Shown here: positions 65-12,597 of the stretch, in pieces | Position numbering within the stretch: position 1 is the first letter of the stretch | Layout: each line of letters starts with the position of its first letter | Assembly (NCBI GenBank): GCA_964501265.1 | Contig: CAZCSK010000003.1 | Coordinates: 67,480 to 131,479, forward strand | Source: an uncultured Actinomycetes bacterium | Lineage (GTDB): Bacteria > Actinomycetota > CADDZG01 > JAHWKV01 | Length of the DNA: 64,000 bases | Direction of reading: 5' to 3' | The notes under the pieces: model-generated | Told to the model about the DNA's origin: nothing | What the model saw: only the letters and a program-made list of their open reading frames with translations | Databases searched by the model: none | Program-made: the position numbers and the translations under genes

Positions 65-1039
65 CTAACGGGTCCTGGTCACCTTGGATAAGCCGCGGTC
101 GGCGTCGGGATTCTCACCCAATTGCAGGGCCCACTCAAGGACGACTCTCTGGCCGACGACAAGACGAAGGATCGCGTCCATCGACGGATCTCCTAGAGGG
201 CGCGTAACGACGTCGAAGTCATCGTCGGGTCCAACAGTGACGACCCCGCGTCCTGCGAGCAGGAATTCGAGGTTGGGGTCATCTGGGTCAATAAATGCCA
301 GAGAAGATGCGGTCGCGGCCGTCGGTCCGTGTAGGAATTCAACGACAGGCTCGGCGGAAACTAAGCGGCCGGCCATCTCGGCGAATTTGAGTGCAATCTC
401 ATCGGCGATCCACTCGGCCGCAAACCCTGAGCAGATCACCGATTCCGGTGGCCCTTGATTCAAGGCGCCCGAAACATCCATTTTCGTGATTGTCCATTCG
501 ACTTCGCTGCAAAGGTTCGCAACAAGGTCCGCATCGAGAGGCTGGGCGATCGCACGGAGAAGAAGTGCCGCCGCGGTTAAAGACTTAGTCGCAGCGACCA
601 CGCGCTCCGATCCTGCATCGCACGTAAGCTCGATCGTCGCAAGAGCTCCAAGACGAGAACCCGGCTGGTTTGTAATCGATATGACGGGAAGCCCTCGCTC
701 CCGCGCTTTCGAGACTGCCTGCACCAGAGCGGGAGTCTCGCCCGACTGCGACAGGGCGATTACGACTTGACCGGCGACGAGAGCCGGCATAGGCACGGCA
801 GCTCCGGGGGCAGGCAGTACCGTAGCCGGGACGCCTGCAAGGATCTCAAGGGCGGCTCCTCCGTATCCGGCAACATGCCTGCTCGAGCCGACTGCGAGCA
901 GCCTGACAAGGTCAGCCTCGGCAACTAAAGCGTGGGCCTGCTCCAACAGGTCCGCGTTCTGATCGATTACCCGCGCTAAGACCGAAGGCTGTTCGGCGAT
1001 GTCGGCGGCGACCCGTAAATCGGACCGCCGAAGCGTCAT
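65..1039 (-). CDS. SIS-domain sugar-phosphate isomerase family protein (AgaS/GlmS-C-terminal-like; possible NagB-II-type deaminase)
   Basis: 324-aa ORF. SIS signature: VGSSRH...ISQSGET...ISITN...AATKS. Start overlaps upstream gene stop (ATGA coupling at 1036-1039). Confidence 0.6.
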   Translation of the reverse strand: MTLRRSDLRVAADIAEQPSVLARVIDQNADLLEQAHALVAEADLVRLLAVGSSRHVAGYGGAALEILAGVPATVLPAPGAAVPMPALVAGQVVIALSQSGETPALVQAVSKARERGLPVISITNQPGSRLGALATIELTCDAGSERVVAATKSLTAAALLLRAIAQPLDADLVANLCSEVEWTITKMDVSGALNQGPPESVICSGFAAEWIADEIALKFAEMAGRLVSAEPVVEFLHGPTAATASSLAFIDPDDPNLEFLLAGRGVVTVGPDDDFDVVTRPLGDPSMDAILRLVVGQRVVLEWALQLGENPDADRGLSKVTRTR

Positions 1040-3732
1040 AGAGTGCGCGCTTTTCTCCTGTGGAGGACAAGGAGCCCTAAGAGAAGCAACAGCCCAACAC
1101 TTCCACTCGCGGCGAACGTCCCAGCGAACTGTGATTCCGAATCGACCGACTCGGCCTGATCACCGGTAGAGGCGGCGATCGCGCTTGCTCCCGGCGGATC
1201 CTTAGTCTCAACGGGCAGGGCCAGATAGATCGCGGAAGTCAGCGCCGTAACGAGGACGTGGTTGCGGCAATAAGTTGTTTGGAGGCCCACTATCGAGTCG
1301 CACGTCCCTGCCCGTTGGGCGGCTGCGTCCGGCTGAAGCAGCGTAGCCCTCACCCAGCCTGGATTTGCCGGCGCTGCGAAGCGAACCTCGCCGGCAGGCA
1401 GGAGCACAGTATTGTCTTCGCTCAGAAGGGTGGCCCCATTGGCTCGTACCTGAACCATGCTGGGCCCCGGCAGTCCCGTTGCCCGAACCCGCATTGGGGT
1501 ATTTGGCGGTACCGTATCGCCAATCATCGACTCATAGAGTCCGTCGCGGTTGATGTCGGCTTCGAGGAGGAGTTGCACTGCTCCCTCTGCGGGCGGGGTG
1601 ACCGATATGGATGTCCGTCCCTCTTTGAGAGCTTGAAGGATTCCACCGACGCTCCGCTCTCGCGCAAAGACCCACGTCGTGGGGTTACCGGGGCCCTGGA
1701 TCAGCGCAGTCGAAAGCCAGTGCGAGTCGCTTCCTCCGGTCGCTGCCACCCGATTACCGCGTTGCAACCAGCACTCCCAGTAACGGGTCGCGTCCTCGTT
1801 CGAAGTACCCCCAGGCAGCGGGGGCTGAAGTTGGTGCGATATGTTCCAAACTTCGACGGTGTCGACACGAACATCAAACCCGTACCTCCAGTGCAGGCCC
1901 GACGTGTCGGAACAGTTGGCGTCGAGCGGCGTTGCGAGACCATCGGCGGGGTGGTTGGCCTGGAAAACGCCGCCGTCGGCGCGCAGGGTGTCGGCCATGC
2001 GGTTGATGGCGGCGGCCTGCATGTCCCCGGCGTTGTAGGCTCCGGCTACCGCCGTTCCGGAAACGAAAGACTCCCACTTGAAGCCCAGCATCTGGGCATG
2101 GCCACCGATCGAGTTCTCATAGCCCGGCACTCCGATCACTCCGTGAGTGCCGAATCCCGGATCGTTAACCGAGTGGGCGCCACTTTCCTCGGGATGGTCG
2201 TCGCTGTGGTGATCTGTAATGGCGAGGAAGTCCAAACCGCGAGCAGATGCCTCGAGGAATCTCTCATCCACTGTTCCTGAAAGCGTCCAGAAGTCCTCCG
2301 GAGCGGTGTTGAAATCGTCCGGCGGACAGTAGGCGTCGTGGGAGTAGCAGGTGTGGATATGAAGGTCGCCTGCCAGCCATTCGCCCGCCGGCGCGCTGGG
2401 GGCAGCGATAGAAACCCAGACCGGACTGGAGTAAGCGACGTAACGACCCGCCGCGTTCTGCACACGAATGAAGTAGTAGGGATCGGAGTAGCGGGCTTTG
2501 AGCGCAACGTCGATCGATCCAGTCCCGGACGCGACGATGCGGTTGCGCCCGGTTACGGGGTCGATGCCGCTTGTCACGACCTCGATTTGCAGGCCCGAGC
2601 GGTCGATGGTCGGGTCGGCGCTCGTAACCGATGCCCGCAGTTTCAATTTGCTGCCGTTCGGGCGTGCCAAACGCGACCCCATCAGGTTGCCGTCCACGGT
2701 AAAGTCAAGCCGGAGGTCGTTGTGGTCTCCGTCGGCCGTATTGTTAAAGTCAAAGTCTCCGGCTACGGCATAAAAGCGCCGAGCAAGCATCGCCTTACGG
2801 AGCGACGCCTCGGACCGGTCAGGGGCGAGAATAATCGTTTTCGCCCAGCGCGGCGCTCCCCAGTCGCCGTCCTCTTCCGGTTGGCCATGCAGGTCTTCTG
2901 CCCCGATCGCGCCTACATGCCAGCCTTTGTCGAGAGCGCGCACATAGTAGCCCTCAGGTGGTCCCTTGGCGCCGTATTCATTCTGACGGTTGTACATCTC
3001 GATCCCAACCATGCGGTCGTCGGCTTCGGGCACGAATCGAAAGTCTTCCCAGTCCTTCGAGGGGTCAGTTTGGGACTGCCCGGCTGCTCTTATTGCGTCC
3101 TCGACTATCTCCTTATCGCCGGGATGGTTGAAAGTGGCCAAACCATCGCTTCCGCCACCTAATTCCGGGCTATCGGTGAACCACTTCCAGAAGGTCTCCA
3201 TGGTGGCCGCGTAGCCGCCATCTGTCTTGGCGTTGGCGTCGTTCTTCGAGTAGTAGACGTTGATATGGCCGTAACGGTCAGAAGTCCATTCGAACCCGCG
3301 GATGCCGGTAAAGTCGGCGGTCGTTGCTGCTCTTGCTTGCTCAAGAGTAGCTTCCCATTTTCGTAGCGAGTCAGCAGGGTTGTGGGCACCACCCTCGGGC
3401 CCCGGACATTGCACGACCCTCACGGGGTCGAGGCATCCATCACTAACGGTGAATGGGATATCCGTGTTGTCCGAATGCTCACTTCCTGCGAGGAAGTCGA
3501 GGCCGAAGCTCTTGCCGGAGGCGTAGTAGTCGGCCGGACGCGTGCCGGGCCACCCGTCGGAGTAGGCGCTGTGCTCGTGCATCGCTCCGATCAGTTGTTG
3601 AACTTTGACCTTAGGCGTCGACGGTTTGCCGGCCCCCGCCGATTGAGGAAGGATGGTCAGCAACGCCAACGGGATCGCAAGGAGGGCAGTTCCCCTTTTG
3701 AAAAGTCTGGTCGGTTTGCTCGATCTATTCAT
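1036..3732 (-). CDS. Secreted metal-dependent phosphoesterase with two PHP-like domains and C-terminal TM anchor
   Basis: PHP motifs GDLHIHTCYSHD and LDFLAITDHH, plus an N-terminal second H-x-H region (MHEHSAYSDG). Signal peptide after MNRSSKPTRLFKRGTALLAIPLALL; the ORF-track start at 3765 was trimmed to the ATG at 3732, which has an AGGAAA RBS. C-terminus is hydrophobic helix + HRRKAR. Confidence 0.6.
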   Translation of the reverse strand: MNRSSKPTRLFKRGTALLAIPLALLTILPQSAGAGKPSTPKVKVQQLIGAMHEHSAYSDGWPGTRPADYYASGKSFGLDFLAGSEHSDNTDIPFTVSDGCLDPVRVVQCPGPEGGAHNPADSLRKWEATLEQARAATTADFTGIRGFEWTSDRYGHINVYYSKNDANAKTDGGYAATMETFWKWFTDSPELGGGSDGLATFNHPGDKEIVEDAIRAAGQSQTDPSKDWEDFRFVPEADDRMVGIEMYNRQNEYGAKGPPEGYYVRALDKGWHVGAIGAEDLHGQPEEDGDWGAPRWAKTIILAPDRSEASLRKAMLARRFYAVAGDFDFNNTADGDHNDLRLDFTVDGNLMGSRLARPNGSKLKLRASVTSADPTIDRSGLQIEVVTSGIDPVTGRNRIVASGTGSIDVALKARYSDPYYFIRVQNAAGRYVAYSSPVWVSIAAPSAPAGEWLAGDLHIHTCYSHDAYCPPDDFNTAPEDFWTLSGTVDERFLEASARGLDFLAITDHHSDDHPEESGAHSVNDPGFGTHGVIGVPGYENSIGGHAQMLGFKWESFVSGTAVAGAYNAGDMQAAAINRMADTLRADGGVFQANHPADGLATPLDANCSDTSGLHWRYGFDVRVDTVEVWNISHQLQPPLPGGTSNEDATRYWECWLQRGNRVAATGGSDSHWLSTALIQGPGNPTTWVFARERSVGGILQALKEGRTSISVTPPAEGAVQLLLEADINRDGLYESMIGDTVPPNTPMRVRATGLPGPSMVQVRANGATLLSEDNTVLLPAGEVRFAAPANPGWVRATLLQPDAAAQRAGTCDSIVGLQTTYCRNHVLVTALTSAIYLALPVETKDPPGASAIAASTGDQAESVDSESQFAGTFAASGSVGLLLLLGLLVLHRRKARTL

Positions 3733-3773
3733 CCAAGTTTTCCTTTCTTTCAATGCTGCGTGCACCGATCATC
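3721..3773 (-). promoter_or_regulatory. Conserved ~53-nt leader/RBS/start region shared with the adjacent GDPD gene (partner at 5006-5058)
   Basis: Plus-strand 3721-3773 and 5006-5058 align at about 45 of 53 positions; downstream coding sequences are otherwise unrelated. Contains RBS AGGAAR and the first 5 codons (M-N/S-R-S-S/N-K). Confidence 0.3.
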
Positions 3774-3831
3774 TGGTACGCACTCCGGCGCATTCGGGGA
3801 ACGGAGCGTAGATGAGCGGAGCCACGGTGCG

Positions 3832-5016
3832 TCAGCGCCCGGCGTCGACAGCTGTCGACGCCAACGCCGAACCGTCGCCAGCGAATCGGATGCGACCGGA
3901 CCGTCCTGGGGGTAGCGGCGCGCAGCCATCCCGGGCCGTGACCACCGTGGAACCGTCGCCCAGCCGCAGCGCCTTCCCCGGCAGGCCCATCCTGTGTTCG
4001 GCGTCGAGCAAACACGCCAATGCCTCGCCTGCGGGTCGCAGCGACAATGTCGTCGCGACCGGCTCACCGAGCACTGCAGCGGCGACATCGGGGTTATTGA
4101 CCTGGGCGCCGTCCGCCCCGATGGATCGGGCGTAGGCGAGGTCACCGGCTTCGGAGCCGGTTACTTCGCCTTGGTAGACATTGGGCAGCACGAGTCCACA
4201 GCCGTCGTGGATCTCGGCGATGTCGCCCGCGTCGAACGCCGGCAGGCTCGATCCAAAGGACCAATACTCCTGGGTCAGCGCGTACAACGAGCCCGGCGGC
4301 GCTCCGTCGGGCAGGTTGCCGAACTGGTTGGAGAAGTTCAGCCGCGCCGTCGGTTGGGCCGCGAGAATCACCTCACCTCGCGGTGGGAAGTAGGGGATGA
4401 ACACGGAGCGGTCGAGCACGCCGTAGGCGGCGGCCAGGTTGGCCAGGCCAGCCAGGTTGCGGACCGACTCCTTTATGTCGAACATCACCCCAGTCCCCGT
4501 GTCCTGGGCAAGGGCGAGGATCTCCTCGAGCGAGGGGATCTGGGCGGGGTCGTACTCGGAGCCGCGCCAGCGGTCGTTGTCGGCCGCGTTCAGCGCCCGC
4601 ACTTGGTCGTAGGTAAGGAGAAAGATCTTGCCGGTGCCGTTGGTCTTGGAATCGACATCGAGGTCGTGGAACGAGACGAACCGGCCGTCGAGGGTCTCCT
4701 GCACGTCGACCTCGATCATCTCGACGTCGTAGGCAATGGCGTAGCGGTAGGCGTCGAGCGTGTTCTCGGGGGCCAGGTTGGCGGCGCCCCGGTGCACGGC
4801 GATGATCGGGCTGTCGGCGCCGCGGTCGGGCACCGAGGGATTTTCCCACCGGGTGGGGTCGGGCAGTTGGTCGCATCCCGCAGGAAGAGCCGTGACTGAG
4901 GCGGGAAACACGGCGGCAGCCAGGAGGAGCGCGGCGGCAATAGCGACGGGCCGGTGGATACCCATTAATGCCATCCTTCGGTTAAATGGATAACCCCACT
5001 TGTTCGATCTACTCAT
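3832..5016 (-). CDS. Secreted glycerophosphodiester phosphodiesterase (GDPD) family protein
   Basis: GDPD catalytic motifs IIAVHRGA...APENTL...EVDV...HDLDVD. Signal peptide. ORF-track start at 5049 trimmed to the ATG at 5016 with RBS GAGAGGAAG. Confidence 0.7.
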   Translation of the reverse strand: MSRSNKWGYPFNRRMALMGIHRPVAIAAALLLAAAVFPASVTALPAGCDQLPDPTRWENPSVPDRGADSPIIAVHRGAANLAPENTLDAYRYAIAYDVEMIEVDVQETLDGRFVSFHDLDVDSKTNGTGKIFLLTYDQVRALNAADNDRWRGSEYDPAQIPSLEEILALAQDTGTGVMFDIKESVRNLAGLANLAAAYGVLDRSVFIPYFPPRGEVILAAQPTARLNFSNQFGNLPDGAPPGSLYALTQEYWSFGSSLPAFDAGDIAEIHDGCGLVLPNVYQGEVTGSEAGDLAYARSIGADGAQVNNPDVAAAVLGEPVATTLSLRPAGEALACLLDAEHRMGLPGKALRLGDGSTVVTARDGCAPLPPGRSGRIRFAGDGSALASTAVDAGR

Positions 5017-5058
5017 CGAAGTCTTCCTCTCTTTCAATCCTGCCTGCACTGATCAGCG
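5006..5058 (-). promoter_or_regulatory. Conserved leader element, paralogous copy of 3721-3773
   Basis: See 3721-3773. Roughly 85% identity over 53 nt spanning the 5' UTR, RBS and first codons. Confidence 0.3.
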
Positions 5059-5104
5059 AGTGAAGGTCGATAGGTAGGGCGGATTCTCGTAAACGCTTTC
5101 AGTG

Positions 5105-6991
5105 CTAGACGTGTGCCGGTCCCGCCCATTCCGGGAACGAGCCTGAACCGGGTTCTTCCACTTCTGTGTAGTACCGGATCATCCAGTAGGGAAGGAGATA
5201 ATCGACTCCGGGGTATCGGTGAGAGGCGCCCACGTACCCGTTGAGTTGGGTGGAGGGACGTTGCCAGAGAAAGTCGCTCGGGGGCCTTAGGGCCACAGGC
5301 AGCGGATAGCGGCTCCGAACTTTTGGCTTAGGCTGGCCCGGGAATTGGCTCTGGATGTCGCTGAGCCCCGGAATGATCGCGTTCCTTGGACCGGCCGGAG
5401 TCGACTGGCTGACCTCCATTTGATCTTGCGGCACGCATTCGAGCGGCTGCGGGCACCCAATCCGATCACTGCAGTTTCCGTTAGCATCCCGAAGACCGTT
5501 ACACGTTTCCCCGCCCTGATCGATTCGCGCACGGTATTGGCGCCATTCGCGCAGATGCTGAGCTGCGGCGTCAAGTCGGCCTTCCTCACCGGTCAGGGCC
5601 CAGGTGATGGTCTCGAAATGGGCGTTGATGTCGTCACCGGTCGTGCGGTCCATCACGCCGAGTGCTTGCTTGAAAAGCGTTCTCACCGCCGGGTCGTTCT
5701 CGAGGCGTGTGATGTTGAAGGCGTTCAGGTGATGCAGATTGTACTTGTAGTAGCCGGAGTGGCCGGCGTCGGCCGCGTCGACTTCCATCGAGAAGGCCAG
5801 GATGGGCCCCTGCGAAGCGAGTTCCTCGGCCCAGACGGCGTCCCACTTCTGGCGGTCGGCCTCGGTCCCGCCGTCTTTCAGGACATGACGGACCGCCTGC
5901 ACCATGTTCAGGCGAGCCATCGGGACGTAGACCATCAGCGGGGAGATCGCGCCGTCGAAGTCGTGGTCTGCGCTGACGTACCCGTGCGGCCGGGGGTAGT
6001 TCCAGCCGTACTTCACCAGGAAGTTGCCCATCGACAGCAGGTCGTCGCGAATTTGTTTGCGCAGTGCCGGCTCGTCCGGGCCGACGAGGTCGAAGGCGGT
6101 GAGCAGGCCGAAGGTCAGGCCGGCGTACGTGTCGCGGCTGGGCGCGGTCTCGCAGTTGTAGGCGACATCGTCGACGGTCGAGGTGATGGTGAAGACCCGG
6201 TAATAGTTGTCATTCACAGGTTGCTCGTCGGGGCCGGGTGTGTCCTCGATGCCCATCGCGCCAAGGCCGACCGGGGTGCAGGAACGCATGATCATGCCGC
6301 GCTCGCCCTTGATTATCCCGCCGCCAAAGTTAGCGGCGTGTCTCTGATTGATCGGATCGACGGTGTTAACGTCCGGCGGGATCTTCAGGCTGCCAGTCCA
6401 GTCTTCGGCGATGTTGATGTCGCGGTGCTCGGCGGCAAGGATCGTCTTCAGCCGACTCAGAGCCTGGTCGCGCTGGCCCTTCCAGAACTTGAGCTCTTGT
6501 CCCGGGGCGCTGTCGGAGTTGTCCTTGCCGGAAGACCGGATCTTGTCTCTCAGGTTCGCCAAGTTGGTCTTCGCCACGGCGTAGCGCATCGCCTGGGCGG
6601 CCACATACGTACCGGTCCACAACCCGCTGTCGCCCCACCCACCGGTGCCCACGACATCACCGGGTACCTTCTGAGTCGATCCAAAGTTGATCTCGACGAC
6701 GTGTCCCTGTTGCAGGGAGTCGGCCATCTTCGTCTCAAGGTCTACCGCGGCGGCGAGAGCCTCGTCGCATTCGATCAATGTGCAATTGTCGTTGGGTGTC
6801 GTGGTCGTCCCGGCCAGCGCTAGCCCGTTTGCTGTCGCCGCCCTCGGCTGCTCCATACCGCGAACATCTCCGGAATCTGGGCGGGCATTCGTACGCGAAT
6901 CGATGACTACCGCCTGAGCCGCGACGCCTACTGCAAGTGCAAAGGTGATGAGGGCGACGAGTGCGCGTCGCTTGCCCGAAATATCTCGCAT
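5105..6991 (-). CDS. Secreted hypothetical protein (628 aa), function not recognised
   Basis: Long ORF with clear N-terminal signal peptide (MRDISGKRRALVALITFALAVGVAAQA) and RBS GGAGGGGAAG upstream. No motif I can assign. Confidence 0.5.
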   Translation of the reverse strand: MRDISGKRRALVALITFALAVGVAAQAVVIDSRTNARPDSGDVRGMEQPRAATANGLALAGTTTTPNDNCTLIECDEALAAAVDLETKMADSLQQGHVVEINFGSTQKVPGDVVGTGGWGDSGLWTGTYVAAQAMRYAVAKTNLANLRDKIRSSGKDNSDSAPGQELKFWKGQRDQALSRLKTILAAEHRDINIAEDWTGSLKIPPDVNTVDPINQRHAANFGGGIIKGERGMIMRSCTPVGLGAMGIEDTPGPDEQPVNDNYYRVFTITSTVDDVAYNCETAPSRDTYAGLTFGLLTAFDLVGPDEPALRKQIRDDLLSMGNFLVKYGWNYPRPHGYVSADHDFDGAISPLMVYVPMARLNMVQAVRHVLKDGGTEADRQKWDAVWAEELASQGPILAFSMEVDAADAGHSGYYKYNLHHLNAFNITRLENDPAVRTLFKQALGVMDRTTGDDINAHFETITWALTGEEGRLDAAAQHLREWRQYRARIDQGGETCNGLRDANGNCSDRIGCPQPLECVPQDQMEVSQSTPAGPRNAIIPGLSDIQSQFPGQPKPKVRSRYPLPVALRPPSDFLWQRPSTQLNGYVGASHRYPGVDYLLPYWMIRYYTEVEEPGSGSFPEWAGPAHV

Positions 6992-7066
6992 TTGACTTCC
7001 CCTCCAGGAGCTCTCGGCCTTGAGGCGCCCAGGGATTGGACGGCCAGCCGAAGAATTAATGTAGCT

Positions 7067-7080
7067 TATACATACAAATC
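7067..7080. promoter_or_regulatory. AT-rich motif TATACATACAAATC, also at 24362-24375 with a related copy at 12625-12637; candidate operator or -10 region
   Basis: Exact 14-mer shared by two promoter regions in a GC-rich genome. Flanks also similar (AATG-N5-TATACATACAAATCyC). Confidence 0.25.
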
Positions 7081-7136
7081 CCTAAGCGTCAACACCTAAG
7101 CAGCAAATTGGACCGTTTGTTCCAAAGTTGATCCTC

Positions 7137-7167
7137 GCGGGTCACAATCAATGACCCGCACGGGTCA
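7137..7167. promoter_or_regulatory. Overlapping palindromes GCGGGTCA-N7-TGACCCGC-AC-GGGTCA (three GGGTCA/TGACCC half-sites)
   Basis: Perfect 8-bp inverted repeat with 7-nt spacer, immediately followed by a second 7+2+7 palindrome. Lies 3' of rbsK and within the promoter region of the 5105-6991 gene. No flanking T-tract, so operator more likely than terminator. Confidence 0.3.
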
Positions 7168-7212
7168 CCAAGGCTATCTTCTGGCTCTCAAAACGCCCAC
7201 TTTTAGGGGTCT

Positions 7213-8133
7213 TTAGCCGCCCTGGGCGCTCAAGATTTGCTCCAGCCGGGTTCGGGACGGCAGCGACGGCTGGGCCCCTTTTACCGTAGCCGCCAGGGAC
7301 CCCGCAGCGCATGCCCATCGCAAAGACTCTTCGACAGAGTGGTTTTCGACAAGGGCGGCCGCCAGGGCGCCGTTGAAGGCGTCGCCAGCGGCGACGGTGT
7401 CGACCGCGTCTATCAAGGGGGCAGAGACGAAGGCAGTTTTTTCAGCCGTGGCCAAGAAGCATCCTCGGGCGCCAAGTGTGATCACAACGTTCTGGGCCCC
7501 GCCTGCCAGGAGAAAATCTGCCGCCCTTTTTGTCGATTGCTCGTCGGTAAGCGTGAAGCCACACAAAGTTGCGGCTTCGGTTTCGTTCGGCGTGATCCAG
7601 GTACAAACGGAGAGAAGTGTTTCGGGTAGCCGAAGCGCCGGAGCGGGATCGAGTATCACAGTTACTCCGGCAGAGGCTGCGATCTGCGCCGCTGCCGTTA
7701 CGGTCTCAAGCGGCACTTCGAGCTGAAGCAAGAGCGCCTTCGCGTTCGGTAGCAGTCTCTCGAGCGCGGCCAGCTCTTCCTTGCCCATGCGTCCATTTGC
7801 GCCGGGCACGACGACGATCGAGTTTGCGCCGTCCTCTGCAAGTGAGATGAGCGCCGTGCCGGTCTCTGCCTCCGGGTCGACGGTGACCGCACTCGCGTCG
7901 ACGCCGTCCGCTTCAAGTGAACGAAGTAATGTCTCGCCGAACGGATCTCTGCCCACTCGTCCGATCATCGTCGTCGGTGCTCCAAGGCGCGCCGCGGCGA
8001 TCGCTTGGTTTGCTCCCTTGCCTCCTGGAGCCGTGAAGAAGCTGTCCCCAATAACAGTCTCTCCGGACTGGGGAAGACGGGATGCTGTAACGACCAAATC
8101 CATGTTGATACTACCGAGTACAACGATGCTCAC
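7213..8133 (-). CDS. rbsK: Ribokinase (PfkB family)
   Basis: N-terminal VLGSINMDLV...GGKGANQA and C-terminal DTVAAGDAFNGALAAAL anion-hole motif typical of ribokinase. Confidence 0.8.
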   Translation of the reverse strand: MSIVVLGSINMDLVVTASRLPQSGETVIGDSFFTAPGGKGANQAIAAARLGAPTTMIGRVGRDPFGETLLRSLEADGVDASAVTVDPEAETGTALISLAEDGANSIVVVPGANGRMGKEELAALERLLPNAKALLLQLEVPLETVTAAAQIAASAGVTVILDPAPALRLPETLLSVCTWITPNETEAATLCGFTLTDEQSTKRAADFLLAGGAQNVVITLGARGCFLATAEKTAFVSAPLIDAVDTVAAGDAFNGALAAALVENHSVEESLRWACAAGSLAATVKGAQPSLPSRTRLEQILSAQGG

Positions 8134-9473: not shown

Positions 9474-11650
9474 TCAATCGGCAATGAGAAGTTTGAGCGG
9501 CAGAGCGCGCAGCACTCCATCCACCGGGGCGAAAACGCATAGGTCACCATTCACCGCGAGTGACGAGGTAATCGGGACTCCAAAGTTGATGTCCGAACGG
9601 ATCTCTCCTGAAGTAGAGAGCGTCACGATCCGGCCGTCTCCGAGCGGAACGAGGATGTGTTCATCGATCACGCAAGCGGAAGCCAGAAGCGCTCCGCCCT
9701 CATCGCGATACGGACCCACAGCGATAGGGGCGGATTCTGTAAGGACGGTCTTCCACCGGACCGACCCATCTAAACGGTCGAGACACCAAAGGCTTCCAAT
9801 CCCGGCCGAAGCCAGGAGGCCATCACCGCTCACCACCGGCGCGGCGGGGTTGAACCAGCCAGAGAACGGCGACGACCAGACGATGCTCGCGTCATCAGCG
9901 GACATGCGGTCAATGCGCGATCCCAACCTGATGACGTAGAAATCGGTCGAGCCGGGTTCTCGGCAGAAGCCCGAAACCGGAGTCTTCGGCAGATTGTCTG
10001 CGATTCCCTGCCCGTCCAAGCGATAGATGCTTTCCGGCTTCACATCCTGGGGCCAGATCGTCCTTCCGGTCGACGCCTCGAGTGCCCAGATGTCGGGGAC
10101 TTGCGCCGCGAAGGACAGGATCAGCGTTTCTCCCACGAGTATCGGATGCGCATGGCATGTGATGTTCTCGCGGCTTCCGAGGTCGTCCCGGCGCCACACC
10201 ACTGCCCCGTCCGAGACATCCAGCGCGACAAAACGCGCCACGTCCCCTACGAAGACTCGCTTGCCATCTGTTGCGGGGCGCAGATACGTCCAGAGCCTGA
10301 GAGGCTCGTCGATTTCGGCGCGCCATCGCACGCTACCGTCGGATGGATCGATGCAGACCGTCTCGCCGGTAACGGCGACCGCGACAACAGCGTCGTCTGC
10401 GATCACAACCGATGACTTAACCGCGCTCCCAAGCGCCACCGACCAAACGCGCCGGCCGCTCGATAACTCGAACGCCTCGACGTAGCCTCCGGGCAGGTCC
10501 TCGTTCGCCGACGTTGCGATCGCCAAGTCGCGGTGGATGATCGGCGCGCCGCGAAGGACTCCACCGGATAGGCCGGCGGTCCAGGCGTAGCCCGGATCAT
10601 CGGAAGAGATTCTGCCTGAACGAAAAGTGGCACCCGAAAATTCCTCAGCCCCACGCGCATATGTCGTGACACTCAAGCCCTTACCGTCCCATGTGCCCAC
10701 GCGATAGTGGGCCGGCGAGTAATCGAGTCCTCCGAAATTGGCCGATCCGGTGTTGTAGTGAACTGTCCCGGCTGCCTCCACCACGCGGCTGGTATGCCAG
10801 TGACCAGAGAACGAGGCCAATGGCGTCACTGGCAACCGACCATAAAAGTCACCCAGCATCTGATCATGCGTGAGGAGGATCACCGGCGTCTCGGGGACAA
10901 GAGCAGCAAGGTCCGCCTGCATCCAGCTTTCCTGCGCCTCCGCATCGAAGCCGAGATGATGAGTGGTCCAATCGATAGCTGCGAAATGGACACCGCCGTA
11001 GTCGAACGAATACCAGCGGGGCCCCAGGTGATGATCGTATGGAGTCGTCGGGATTGGGCCGGGATGATTGCCAGGGGCAGGAGCGAACGACATGTGATCG
11101 TGGTTACCGGGGATCGAGTGCACAGGCACAGGCGCCTCAGCGATGCAATCAGCATACGCGCGTAACTCATCGTCCGCGCCGGTATTCGTGTGATCTCCTG
11201 TTGCAATGATGAACGCCGCGTCGTGATGGTGGCGGCCGATCTCCGCCAGGAGTTTACGAAGAACAGCAGGCGTCGTCACGATGCGTTCATGCAGCCCGTC
11301 TTCGTCAGACCAATAGGCAGCGTCACCGGCTTCCCTGCCGAAAGCGCGATCCCCCAGCGAGAGATGGAAATCTGTGATCTGCACGAACTTAAAGGGCACC
11401 GGCTGCTCTTGGAACTCGAGCCGGAACTCCAACGACGAAGAGTCGTAAGGCAAAAACCAGGGATCGGCCGAGTAGCCCGTGGGGCGGGTGATGGTTATGA
11501 AAGGTCCGAACCCCAGTACCTCAAAACTTCCGTCGGCGCCGGTTCGAGTTACGTTCAAGCCATCGGTGACGGTGACACCCTTAGCGCCGCGATCCCCGAT
11601 AAGTACGCGCCCTGCGAGAGGACGTGCCTGCGTCGAGGTCTGGGACATTG
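9474..11650 (-). CDS. Calcineurin-like metallophosphoesterase fused to a PQQ-repeat beta-propeller
   Basis: Metallophosphoesterase motifs ITDFHL...GDHTN...GNHDH. C-terminal half has repeated D-G-x-x-x-W PQQ-like blades. Start trimmed to the ATG at 11650 with GGAGAAAAG RBS; the ORF-track start is 11768. Confidence 0.6.
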
Positions 11651-11754
11651 GCGCTTTTCTCCGATTGTCGAGACTCACTCGACCGCATGGTCGAGCGGTT
11701 GAAGTATAAGTATGAGAAGACCACGCAAAAGCAGGCGGACCCGAGGAGAGAGGG

Positions 11755-12597
11755 ATGAGGTTCCCCAAGTTAGGTCACGAATCGCTGGAGGATATCTTCG
11801 ATCTTTGCCGGCGATCGCTTACCGATCCCCCTGAGAAAGAGGATTTGCAGCGAGCATTGTTCGGCCCGTCCACCGATGCCACTGTGACCGGCGACCCGGA
11901 GCAGGGAGTCGTAGTAACGGTCGTGCGCAACGGCAAAGGTTATGTACGGCTGCTGGCCGTCGATCCAGTTCATCGCGGCAAGGGGATCGGGCGCGCCCTC
12001 ATTGAAGACGCAGAGCAAGATCTCGCGGACTTAGCATCGATTACCGTGGGGGCCGATGCCCCGGATTACTTATGGCCCGGAGTCGACATCCGCGAGACTG
12101 CGGCGATATGCCTTTTCGAAGCGATGGGCTACACGTGTTCTGAAGTTCACTACAACATGTTGGTTGACCTTTCTTCGATCCCGCGCTTTGAGGGAGGCGC
12201 CGAACGCCCAAGGTCCACTGAGCGCGATTCCATCTTGGAATGGTTGGCGCTTCATTGGCCCAACTGGCTGGACGAAGGCATGAGCGGATTCGACCGAGGG
12301 AATTTTCTGGTCGCGCGCGATGAGGAAGGGATAGCCGGCATCGCCGCGTGGAACGTGAATCGCCAAGGATGGTTCGGTCCGACTGCAGTGCGGCCCGCTC
12401 TGGTTGGAAAAGGGTACGGGCGGCCACTGCTCCTCGGCGCCTTAGAAGAGATTCGCCAGGCAGGTGTGAAGAATGCTGAGATCGCCTGGATTGGACCACA
12501 CAAGTTTTACGCGAGGACCGTCGGCGCAACAATCCACCGGACCTTCTGGGCACTCGAAAAGAAGAGGGAGCCGGGAATCGGCAGTGGGCAGGAGTAG
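11755..12597 (+). CDS. GNAT family N-acetyltransferase (possibly tandem GNAT-like halves)
   Basis: Acetyl-CoA binding motif RGKGIGRALIE in the first half; a second similar G-x-G region (GKGYGRPLL) in the C-terminal half. Confidence 0.6.
   Translation: MRFPKLGHESLEDIFDLCRRSLTDPPEKEDLQRALFGPSTDATVTGDPEQGVVVTVVRNGKGYVRLLAVDPVHRGKGIGRALIEDAEQDLADLASITVGADAPDYLWPGVDIRETAAICLFEAMGYTCSEVHYNMLVDLSSIPRFEGGAERPRSTERDSILEWLALHWPNWLDEGMSGFDRGNFLVARDEEGIAGIAAWNVNRQGWFGPTAVRPALVGKGYGRPLLLGALEEIRQAGVKNAEIAWIGPHKFYARTVGATIHRTFWALEKKREPGIGSGQE

Follow-up and report, generated by a model that had tools for sequence, protein, structure and literature searches.

The question raised by this locus is why two neighbouring genes for secreted phosphoesterases, a PHP-like metallohydrolase and a glycerophosphodiester phosphodiesterase (GDPD), begin with nearly the same leader. 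We addressed it within a 64-kb window, that is, the whole stretch of DNA that was analysed. The first-pass annotation had reported about 85% identity between the two leaders, and this similarity was confirmed as a gap-free 56-nt block, beginning TGATC and ending CAA, present in two minus-strand copies at 3771..3716 and 5055..5000. The copies match at 48 of 56 positions (86%), are spaced 1284 nt start to start, and align to each other by blastn with an E value of 2e-13; the coordinates first proposed (3721-3773 and 5006-5058) marked the right region and were off by 2-6 nt. We conclude that the shared leader is most likely an insertion scar left by ordinary genome evolution and not a common regulatory switch. 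The two leaders are, with high probability, copies of a duplicated junction between a gene for a 628-aa protein and the PHP-like gene, which now flank an inserted GDPD gene.

The similarity of the 56-nt block was found to have sharp edges on both sides. Mismatches between its copies are scattered evenly, without a conserved core, and no indel separates the copies despite about 14% divergence. A 37-nt degenerate pattern, searched with up to three mismatches, recovered just these two sites in 64 kb and matched in none of 100 shuffled sequences, and no further copies of the block were found in the window together with the 10 kb added by L001/L002 (about 74 kb of genome). A search of ATTGAAAGANAGGAANACTT against 185,579 species genomes, among which the source genome is not included, gave 26 singleton matches in unrelated, mostly low-GC taxa. 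A random sequence would be expected to match about four times, and a purine-rich, RBS-like word more often; the 26 matches are chance. It was also noted that TGATCNGTGCANGCAGNATTGAAAG had no matches in the JGI metagenomes, where the source genome is likewise not included.

The copy adjoining the PHP-like gene (3716..3771, minus strand) contains a spacer, an in-frame TTG (3753), the SD-like sequence AGAAAGGA, an ATG (3732), and the first PHP codons. The gene itself (1036..3732, minus strand) encodes a CehA/McbA family metallohydrolase of 898 aa from the ATG, or 905 aa from the TTG, which matches NCBIfam NF038032 at 2.5e-57 and whose closest homologue is 56% identical. In both copies an in-frame TTG lies 21 nt 5' of the ATG (3753 and 5037), a position that fits the orthologue start. 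Read from this TTG, the protein begins MKERKTWMNRS and is collinear with the TTG-started orthologue N-termini MKRTLKASARRS, MKKTSAGSTRRS, and MSTKAASGRRS, with which it shares the pattern M..K......RS. The start of the PHP-like gene may thus be the upstream TTG, and the 56-nt block probably belongs natively to this gene, encoding its ancestral N-terminus. An initial description of the block as UTR, RBS, and first five codons requires translation to begin at the ATG; from the TTG, 38 of the 56 nt are coding. The second copy (5000..5055, minus strand) is a duplicate joined in frame 5' of the GDPD gene, with its TTG at 5037 and its ATG at 5016. Across the 13 codons common to both copies we counted three synonymous and three non-synonymous changes, the last of the synonymous ones falling on the first base past the block.

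Further upstream, a second shared block was encountered at 3803..3784 versus 5139..5120, with 17 of 20 positions identical (85%; blastn E = 0.03). None of 200 shuffles reached 17 matches, the shuffle maximum being 15. This block had gone unmentioned in the first-pass annotation. It is collinear with the 56-nt block, and the two together bracket the GDPD gene as direct copies. The functional original (5120..5139, minus strand) comprises the SFPEWAG codons at the C-terminus of a 628-aa secreted protein of unknown function (gene at 5105..6991, minus strand). The other copy (3784..3803, minus strand), which follows the GDPD stop and precedes the start region of PHP, is a decayed relic of the 3' end of that gene and reads PFPECAG; its best local match in L003, a locus from a relative, is the same C-terminal motif, FPEWAG. 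The segment between the two blocks, 12 nt in one copy and 64 nt in the other, gave no significant alignment, so that an extra deletion or insertion must be assumed. Two other similarities, a 10-nt identity (AGATCGAACA) in the L003 intergenic region and one involving CTACCT(A)TCGAC, were neither collinear nor the best local alignment and were set aside as chance.

We then compared the site with its counterparts in relatives. The 628-aa protein, which had no Pfam or NCBIfam match, shows end-to-end identity of 55% with its L003 counterpart and of 44% with that in L005, and its gene is the upstream partner of the PHP-like gene in the closest relatives. In L003, L005, and L040 the C-terminal FPEWAG motif is kept, and the 628-homologue is followed directly by the PHP-like gene without a GDPD gene between them. 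L003 has the entire string in common with the window apart from GDPD: ABC transporter, acetyltransferase, ADP-ribosylglycohydrolase, PfkB, 628-homologue, PHP, and SIS. A GDPD gene was found beside a 628-homologue in none of 14 loci. At the more distant PHP homologues, L033 and L034, the gene 5' of PHP is no 628-homologue, and the 628-PHP pairing is therefore confined to the closest relatives. When the repeat was set against the empty site, FPEWAG and the PHP N-terminus matched by position and at the protein level; because the nearest PHP homologue is only 56% identical, the non-coding part is unalignable and the empty site does not lend itself to base-by-base comparison.

From its likely native start at M18 the GDPD gene spans 3832..4965 (minus strand), with its own SD-like GAAGGA at 4979..4974, and its product matches Pfam GDPD at 1.3e-20. 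The reading frame is open upstream as far as ATG 5016 and TTG 5037, and gene calls differ accordingly, Logan/Prodigal giving 377 aa (start M18) and NCBI 394 aa; the 394-aa form had no exact match on record. The N-terminal extension supplied by the block is absent from all 13 aligned GDPD homologues. The gene has a GC3 of 0.81-0.83, at the top of the 46 ORFs of the window (mean 0.670, sd 0.038, z 3.7); the GC3 of the 628-aa gene is likewise raised (0.77), which makes GC3 alone a soft argument for foreign origin. The nearest GDPD homologues are 82-70% identical, whereas PHP reaches 56% and the 628-aa protein 55%. The closest of them (L006), the one that was traced, has unrelated neighbours and sits on a contig of 72.7% GC, compared with 59.6% GC for the window. 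By GC3, homologue identity, and homologue context, the GDPD gene looks foreign. Its 5' flank shows no similarity to that of the L006 gene, and the left edge of the insert therefore cannot be fixed by this comparison.

The repeats, the relic, the empty site in relatives, and the foreign character of the GDPD gene, all shown by this analysis, can be accommodated by a simple course of events. In the ancestral order the 628-aa gene would have been followed immediately by the PHP-like gene. A foreign, higher-GC piece of about 1.2 kb, whose only gene was GDPD with a ribosome-binding site of its own, would then have been inserted. In the process some 100-140 nt of the junction would have been doubled, comprising the final codons of the 628-aa gene, the spacer, and the start region of PHP with the first N-terminal codons. 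In the upstream copy the 628-aa gene would have kept a working 3' end, and a duplicate PHP start region would have come to lie in frame with the GDPD gene. The downstream copy would have kept the working PHP start region together with a decaying relic of the 628-aa 3' end, from which about 50 nt were lost. Candidate mechanisms are template switching during replication, repair of staggered breaks, or insertion after a small tandem duplication. A single promoter 5' of the 628-aa gene would transcribe all four genes (628-GDPD-PHP-SIS). From the duplicated start region an N-terminally extended precursor of GDPD may be made in addition. Its mature secreted enzyme would be the same, as the hydrophobic core of the signal peptide lies beyond both possible starts.

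A reading that goes beyond a passive scar is a retained start-region capture, in which the GDPD gene joined the operon by receiving a second copy of the PHP translation-initiation region and of the N-terminus of its signal peptide, with selection keeping the copies alike and thereby fixing the translation ratio of the two secreted phosphoesterases. We regard this as unlikely. The 56-nt block has diverged by 14% and the non-functional relic block (3784..3803) by 15%, and with the mismatches spread evenly, special constraint need not be assumed. As a separate observation, the lack of indels after about 14% divergence and the still open GDPD frame would both fit a degree of selection acting on the upstream copy.

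The direction of the event was also considered; that it was a gain here, as opposed to a loss elsewhere, rests on parsimony and composition. Were the order 628-GDPD-PHP with its repeats the older state, the relatives would have lost GDPD through recombination between the repeats, and the block, though still a duplication scar, would be no sign of a recent gain in this lineage. Direct repeats do promote such precise deletion, and at 44-59% protein identity none of the three relatives is close. However, loss would be needed in each of the three, or once early on; the GDPD gene is foreign in composition, its closest homologues reside in much higher-GC genomes and in other contexts, and its absence beside the 628-homologue extends to all 14 loci. 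We therefore judge this reversal improbable.

Slightly less probable again is the reading of the block as a shared cis-regulatory element, such as a Pho-type operator or a translational or RNA element, maintained by selection to co-control two phosphate-releasing enzymes. This was the proposal of the first-pass annotation, and it drew on real features: both genes encode secreted phosphoesterases, an SD-like sequence and start codon lie inside the block, and the copies have diverged by 14% without indels. The searches for regulatory signals did not bear it out. No Rfam family matched the window at gathering score, and folds of the repeat regions were no more stable than shuffles (z of +0.52, -0.98, -0.57, and -0.58). 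The PHO box, taken as at least two 11-nt direct repeat units of the GTTCAYY type in a promoter region, had no GTTCAYY unit in 3716-3835 or 5000-5165, the nearest matches lying within coding sequence at 3181 and 4402. Just two copies of the block occur in the window and the extra 10 kb of L001, and their mismatches are evenly spread, with no conserved core. A cis-element would also leave the second block, the relic of the neighbour's coding end, unexplained, as it would the lack of GDPD at the same site in relatives.

Candidate structures and promoters were examined individually. A hairpin within the block (UCGGUGC/GCAUUGA) was rejected, as the second copy improves one pair and breaks another and the z was not significant. 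A scan of 3500-7300 for sigma-70-type -35 and -10 hexamers at 16-18 nt spacing returned no sites, and a promoter within the block using TTGAAA as its -35 was rejected for want of an acceptable -10 hexamer. By eye, a candidate promoter of the 628-GDPD-PHP-SIS string was placed at 7065..7092 (minus strand; TTGACG-N16-TATAAG); the consensus scan passed over it, since the last base of its second hexamer is not T. The alternative suggestion of a duplicated promoter cassette comes close as regards the duplication, but the duplicated unit is an intercistronic junction and not a promoter cassette. The outcome named at the outset as refuting a regulatory element, a partial duplication without conservation in relatives, likewise comes close to the evidence.

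Least probable of all is that GDPD arrived without duplication and had its 5' end later overwritten with the PHP start region by gene conversion or recombination: the sharp borders of the 56-nt block, taken by itself, do resemble a conversion tract, but conversion requires prior homology that the GDPD homologues lack, and the 17/20 block, which would have to be coincidental, was unreached in 200 shuffles and lies collinear and exactly on the conserved C-terminal motif of PHP's upstream gene in relatives.

Insertion of a GDPD gene with duplication of the 628-PHP junction thus remains the preferred reading, and it removes a false lead, in that the similarity is evidence neither for a phosphate regulon motif nor for a new RNA leader. 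The locus offers a modest and clean natural example of how a gene gained by horizontal transfer comes to sit inside an existing gene string, with the duplication scar legible and both downstream genes retaining a translation start after the insertion. It also bears on annotation, both for the disagreement over the GDPD start (394 versus 377 aa) and for the PHP start, which is perhaps the upstream TTG. If junction-duplicating insertions recur in this lineage, they would form a readable signature of foreign-gene insertion inside operons. A systematic search for scars of this kind could show how genes enter operons.

Several known systems resemble this arrangement in part. Like an actinobacterial PHO box or PhoP operator, the block sits 5' of genes for phosphate-scavenging enzymes; unlike one, it covers a start codon and coding sequence instead of a promoter and is devoid of GTTCAYY-type 11-nt repeats. 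An integron gene cassette is similarly a compact single-gene insert with very little flanking DNA. However, an attC site measures about 57-141 nt, and the 28 nt between the GDPD stop (3832) and the repeat (3803) leave no room for it; no integrase family was found among the neighbouring called genes, no attI was seen nearby, and attI integration produces no 100-nt duplication of the host DNA. As with the target-site duplications of transposons and IS elements, host direct repeats flank the insert and relatives carry the empty site. The repeats here are far longer than those made by transposases, which are typically a few to about 14 bp, and the insert has no terminal inverted repeats at its ends and no ORF other than GDPD, hence no transposase. 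The insertion of foreign genes inside operons is reported to occur, more rarely than additions at operon ends, by a mechanism that "remains unclear" (Price, Arkin & Alm 2006, "The Life-Cycle of Operons", PMC1480536). The present locus resembles those cases in that a foreign gene lies between native, closely spaced, co-oriented genes and is expressible from the native promoter, and it differs from them in carrying a legible scar, a junction duplication of 100-140 nt with an in-frame copy of the start region placed before the GDPD gene.

All of the genes concerned are carried on the minus strand, in the order 628-aa gene, GDPD gene, PHP-like gene and SIS-domain gene. The 628-aa ORF (6991..5105), which has no assigned function, is followed by the glycerophosphodiester phosphodiesterase (GDPD) gene, whose ORF is open from 5049 with an ATG at 5016 and a stop at 3832, and then by the 898-aa PHP-like gene (ATG 3732, stop 1036) and the SIS-domain gene (1039..65). 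We found that a gap-free 56-nt block (TGATC...CAA) is present at 3771..3716, at the PHP-like gene, and at 5055..5000, at the GDPD gene, with 48 of 56 positions identical. The leader that the first-pass annotation had described as common to both genes was thus borne out, a few bases away from the coordinates it gave. A degenerate pattern, allowing up to three mismatches, matched the 64-kb window at these two sites alone and matched no shuffle. In a sliding comparison nothing else rose over background, either within the window or across 10 kb of additional sequence from its genome (contigs L001 and L002). A second shared block, overlooked in the first pass, lies upstream of the 56-nt block at 3803..3784 (CGTTCCCCGAATGCGCCGGA) and 5139..5120 (CGTTCCCGGAATGGGCGGGA). 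It is identical at 17 of 20 positions; shuffling the 120-nt upstream segment 200 times never gave more than 15. The order of the blocks is collinear at both places, with a spacing of 12 nt on the PHP side versus 64 nt on the GDPD side.

The two blocks could be traced to different neighboring genes. The upstream block on the GDPD side falls within the 628-aa gene, where it codes for the C-terminal residues SFPEWAG (...GSFPEWAGPAHV, then the stop codon). On the PHP side it reads PFPECAG and sits within the 60 nt from the GDPD stop to the 56-nt block. The C-terminal motif is kept in 628-homologues of the relatives L003 (NPFPEWVGPAH), L005 (SSFPSWAGPAHS) and L040 (EPFPPWVGPSHK), each directly before the stop, and the best local match of the PHP-side block in L003 is exactly this motif. 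The PHP-side upstream block is thus a relic of the 628-aa gene end.

The 56-nt block holds an SD-like AGAAAGGA and an ATG, together with an in-frame TTG 21 nt upstream of the ATG (3753 and 5037). Both NCBI and Prodigal called the ATG as the PHP start. PHP orthologues in these three relatives have TTG starts (sequence contexts aTTGAAGAAAAC, tTTGAAGAGAAC and cTTGAGCACG, respectively). The window protein read from its TTG (MKERKTWMNRS) is collinear with their N-termini, MKRTLKASARRS, MKKTSAGSTRRS and MSTKAASGRRS, and all share an invariant Arg-Ser that is equally far from the start. These starts and collinear N-termini mark the block as native PHP sequence. Of the earlier description as UTR, RBS and first five codons, the SD-like sequence and ATG stand, and the block is probably mostly ancestral PHP N-terminal coding sequence rather than UTR. 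The PHP-like protein belongs to the CehA/McbA metallohydrolase family (NCBIfam NF038032, 2.5e-57), and no homologue above 59% identity was found among 5.8 billion proteins. Its C-terminus (window 1036-1130, minus strand) has a hydrophobic stretch and then a basic tail (..GSVGLLLLLGLLVLHRRKARTL, stop), which resembles a sorting signal or membrane anchor, although neither LPXTG nor LAXTG is evident ahead of the hydrophobic stretch.

The GDPD gene differs from its neighbors. With identities of 82-70%, its nearest homologues are much closer to it than any recovered for the neighboring genes. The closest of them has an unrelated neighborhood, with thiolase and Usp, on a contig whose GC content is 72.7%, compared with 59.6% for the window and 57-62% for the syntenic relatives. 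Its GC3 is the highest of 46 window ORFs (0.81 for the full ORF, 0.83 from the internal Met M18; mean 0.670, sd 0.038, z = 3.7), although GC3 is weakened as a stand-alone sign of foreign origin by the 628-aa gene, which ranks second in the window (0.771, ~2.7 sd over the mean) despite its synteny with relatives. All 13 aligned GDPD homologues have short N-termini, with ~30 residues before a conserved Cys and most beginning MRR, and none of them has anything corresponding to the window extension M(KERKTSM)SRSNKWGYPFNRR. The gene also has its own SD-like GAAGGA eight bases 5' of the M18 ATG (4965), which was the start called by Prodigal; PGAP called the ATG at 5016. These observations indicate that the GDPD gene is foreign and horizontally acquired. 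A perfect 22-nt palindrome, GGCGTCGACAGCTGTCGACGCC, occupies 3841-3862 in the last GDPD codons (..ASTAVDA..), 7 nt ahead of the stop. A hairpin between GDPD and PHP could form from it; alternatively, as homologues conserve the amino acids encoded here, it may be no more than a consequence of the protein sequence.

The site without GDPD was encountered in relatives. L003, among the closest PHP relatives, has the whole string of ABC transporter, acetyltransferase, ADP-ribosylglycohydrolase, PfkB, 628-homologue, PHP and SIS genes in common with the window; L005 carries ABC transporter, 628-homologue and PHP, and L040 carries PfkB, 628-homologue and PHP. In L003, L005 and L040 the 628-homologue is followed directly by PHP, with stop-to-TTG gaps of 184, 4 and 9 nt respectively and no GDPD between them, and GDPD adjoins the 628-homologue in 0 of 14 loci with such a homologue. 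The 184-nt spacer of L003 (7817-8000) is unusually long and may contain a 55-codon ORF (MSKIEHRTLPSTVALGLVAG...), with a stop codon overlapping the TTG of PHP. A 10-nt identity in this spacer (AGATCGAACA) to the window block was judged to be chance because it is non-collinear and not the best local alignment. The window also carries a metallophosphoesterase gene with a PQQ-like beta-propeller (724-764 aa; 9474-11768, minus strand) between the acetyltransferase and ADP-ribosylglycohydrolase genes, absent from the equivalent position in L003 (3545-3785). With this gene, the cluster would have gained a second phosphoesterase in the window lineage; the metallophosphoesterase gene has no copy of the 56-nt block. 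The 628-aa secreted protein matched no family in Pfam or NCBIfam, and its homologues share many invariant residues. They stand side by side on some metagenome contigs, three in tandem on L038, two in tandem on L037 and two adjoining on opposite strands on L044. The protein represents an uncharacterized family, whose gene immediately precedes that of the CehA/McbA metallohydrolase in the three closest relatives.

The first-pass annotation had preferred to read the 56-nt block as a cis-regulatory element shared by the GDPD and PHP genes, and we found no support for this. No Rfam family reached gathering score anywhere in the window, the RNA folds of the block regions were no better than shuffles (z +0.5 to -1.0), and GTTCAYY-type units were absent in and near both copies. 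The source genome is metagenome-derived and is represented by Logan SRR6868923 and by a 148-kb NCBI contig. A scan of a genome collection that did not include it returned 26 singletons from unrelated taxa, which we read as chance, and a metagenome scan returned no match. A regulatory element would also leave the relic of the neighboring 628-aa gene unexplained. Divergence is 14% in the 56-nt block and 15% in the non-functional relic, and the mismatches in the block are evenly spread, so special constraint need not be invoked. The 13 shared codons contain three synonymous and three non-synonymous mismatches, the last synonymous one being the first base 3' of the block. We consider it quite unlikely that the retained in-frame start-region copy is under functional selection.

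We interpret the repeats as the scar of a duplication flanking a gene gained by horizontal transfer, and rule against a new cis-regulatory element. In the proposed origin, ~1.2 kb of higher-GC DNA carrying only GDPD would have been inserted between the 628-aa gene and PHP, with duplication of their junction; the duplicated segment would start in the final codons of the 628-aa gene and end near PHP codon 13, taking the TTG as codon 1. Of the two copies, the upstream copy would have kept the functional 628-aa gene end plus a copy of the PHP start region in frame with GDPD, and the downstream copy the functional PHP start plus the decaying relic, with ~50 nt missing. Replication template switching, staggered-break repair or insertion after a small tandem duplication could each have produced this arrangement. 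The insert has no terminal inverted repeats and no transposase. An attC site would not fit in the available space, which speaks against an integron cassette. A single promoter ahead of the 628-aa gene probably drives transcription. Visual inspection showed TTGACG-N16-TATAAG at 7092..7065, just after a terminator-like hairpin (7100..7081); a consensus promoter scan of 3500-7300 recovered no promoter-like site. The duplicated start region may still initiate a longer GDPD precursor, and because both candidate starts precede the signal-peptide hydrophobic core, the same mature enzyme would be expected.

Price, Arkin and Alm (2006, PMC1480536) showed that new genes often come to lie beside native genes and are expressed from native promoters. 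They found insertions within existing operons to be rarer than additions at operon ends, and wrote that how genes enter operons 'remains unclear'. The window locus is an ordinary member of this class, slightly unusual in that the scar of the junction duplication is still legible.
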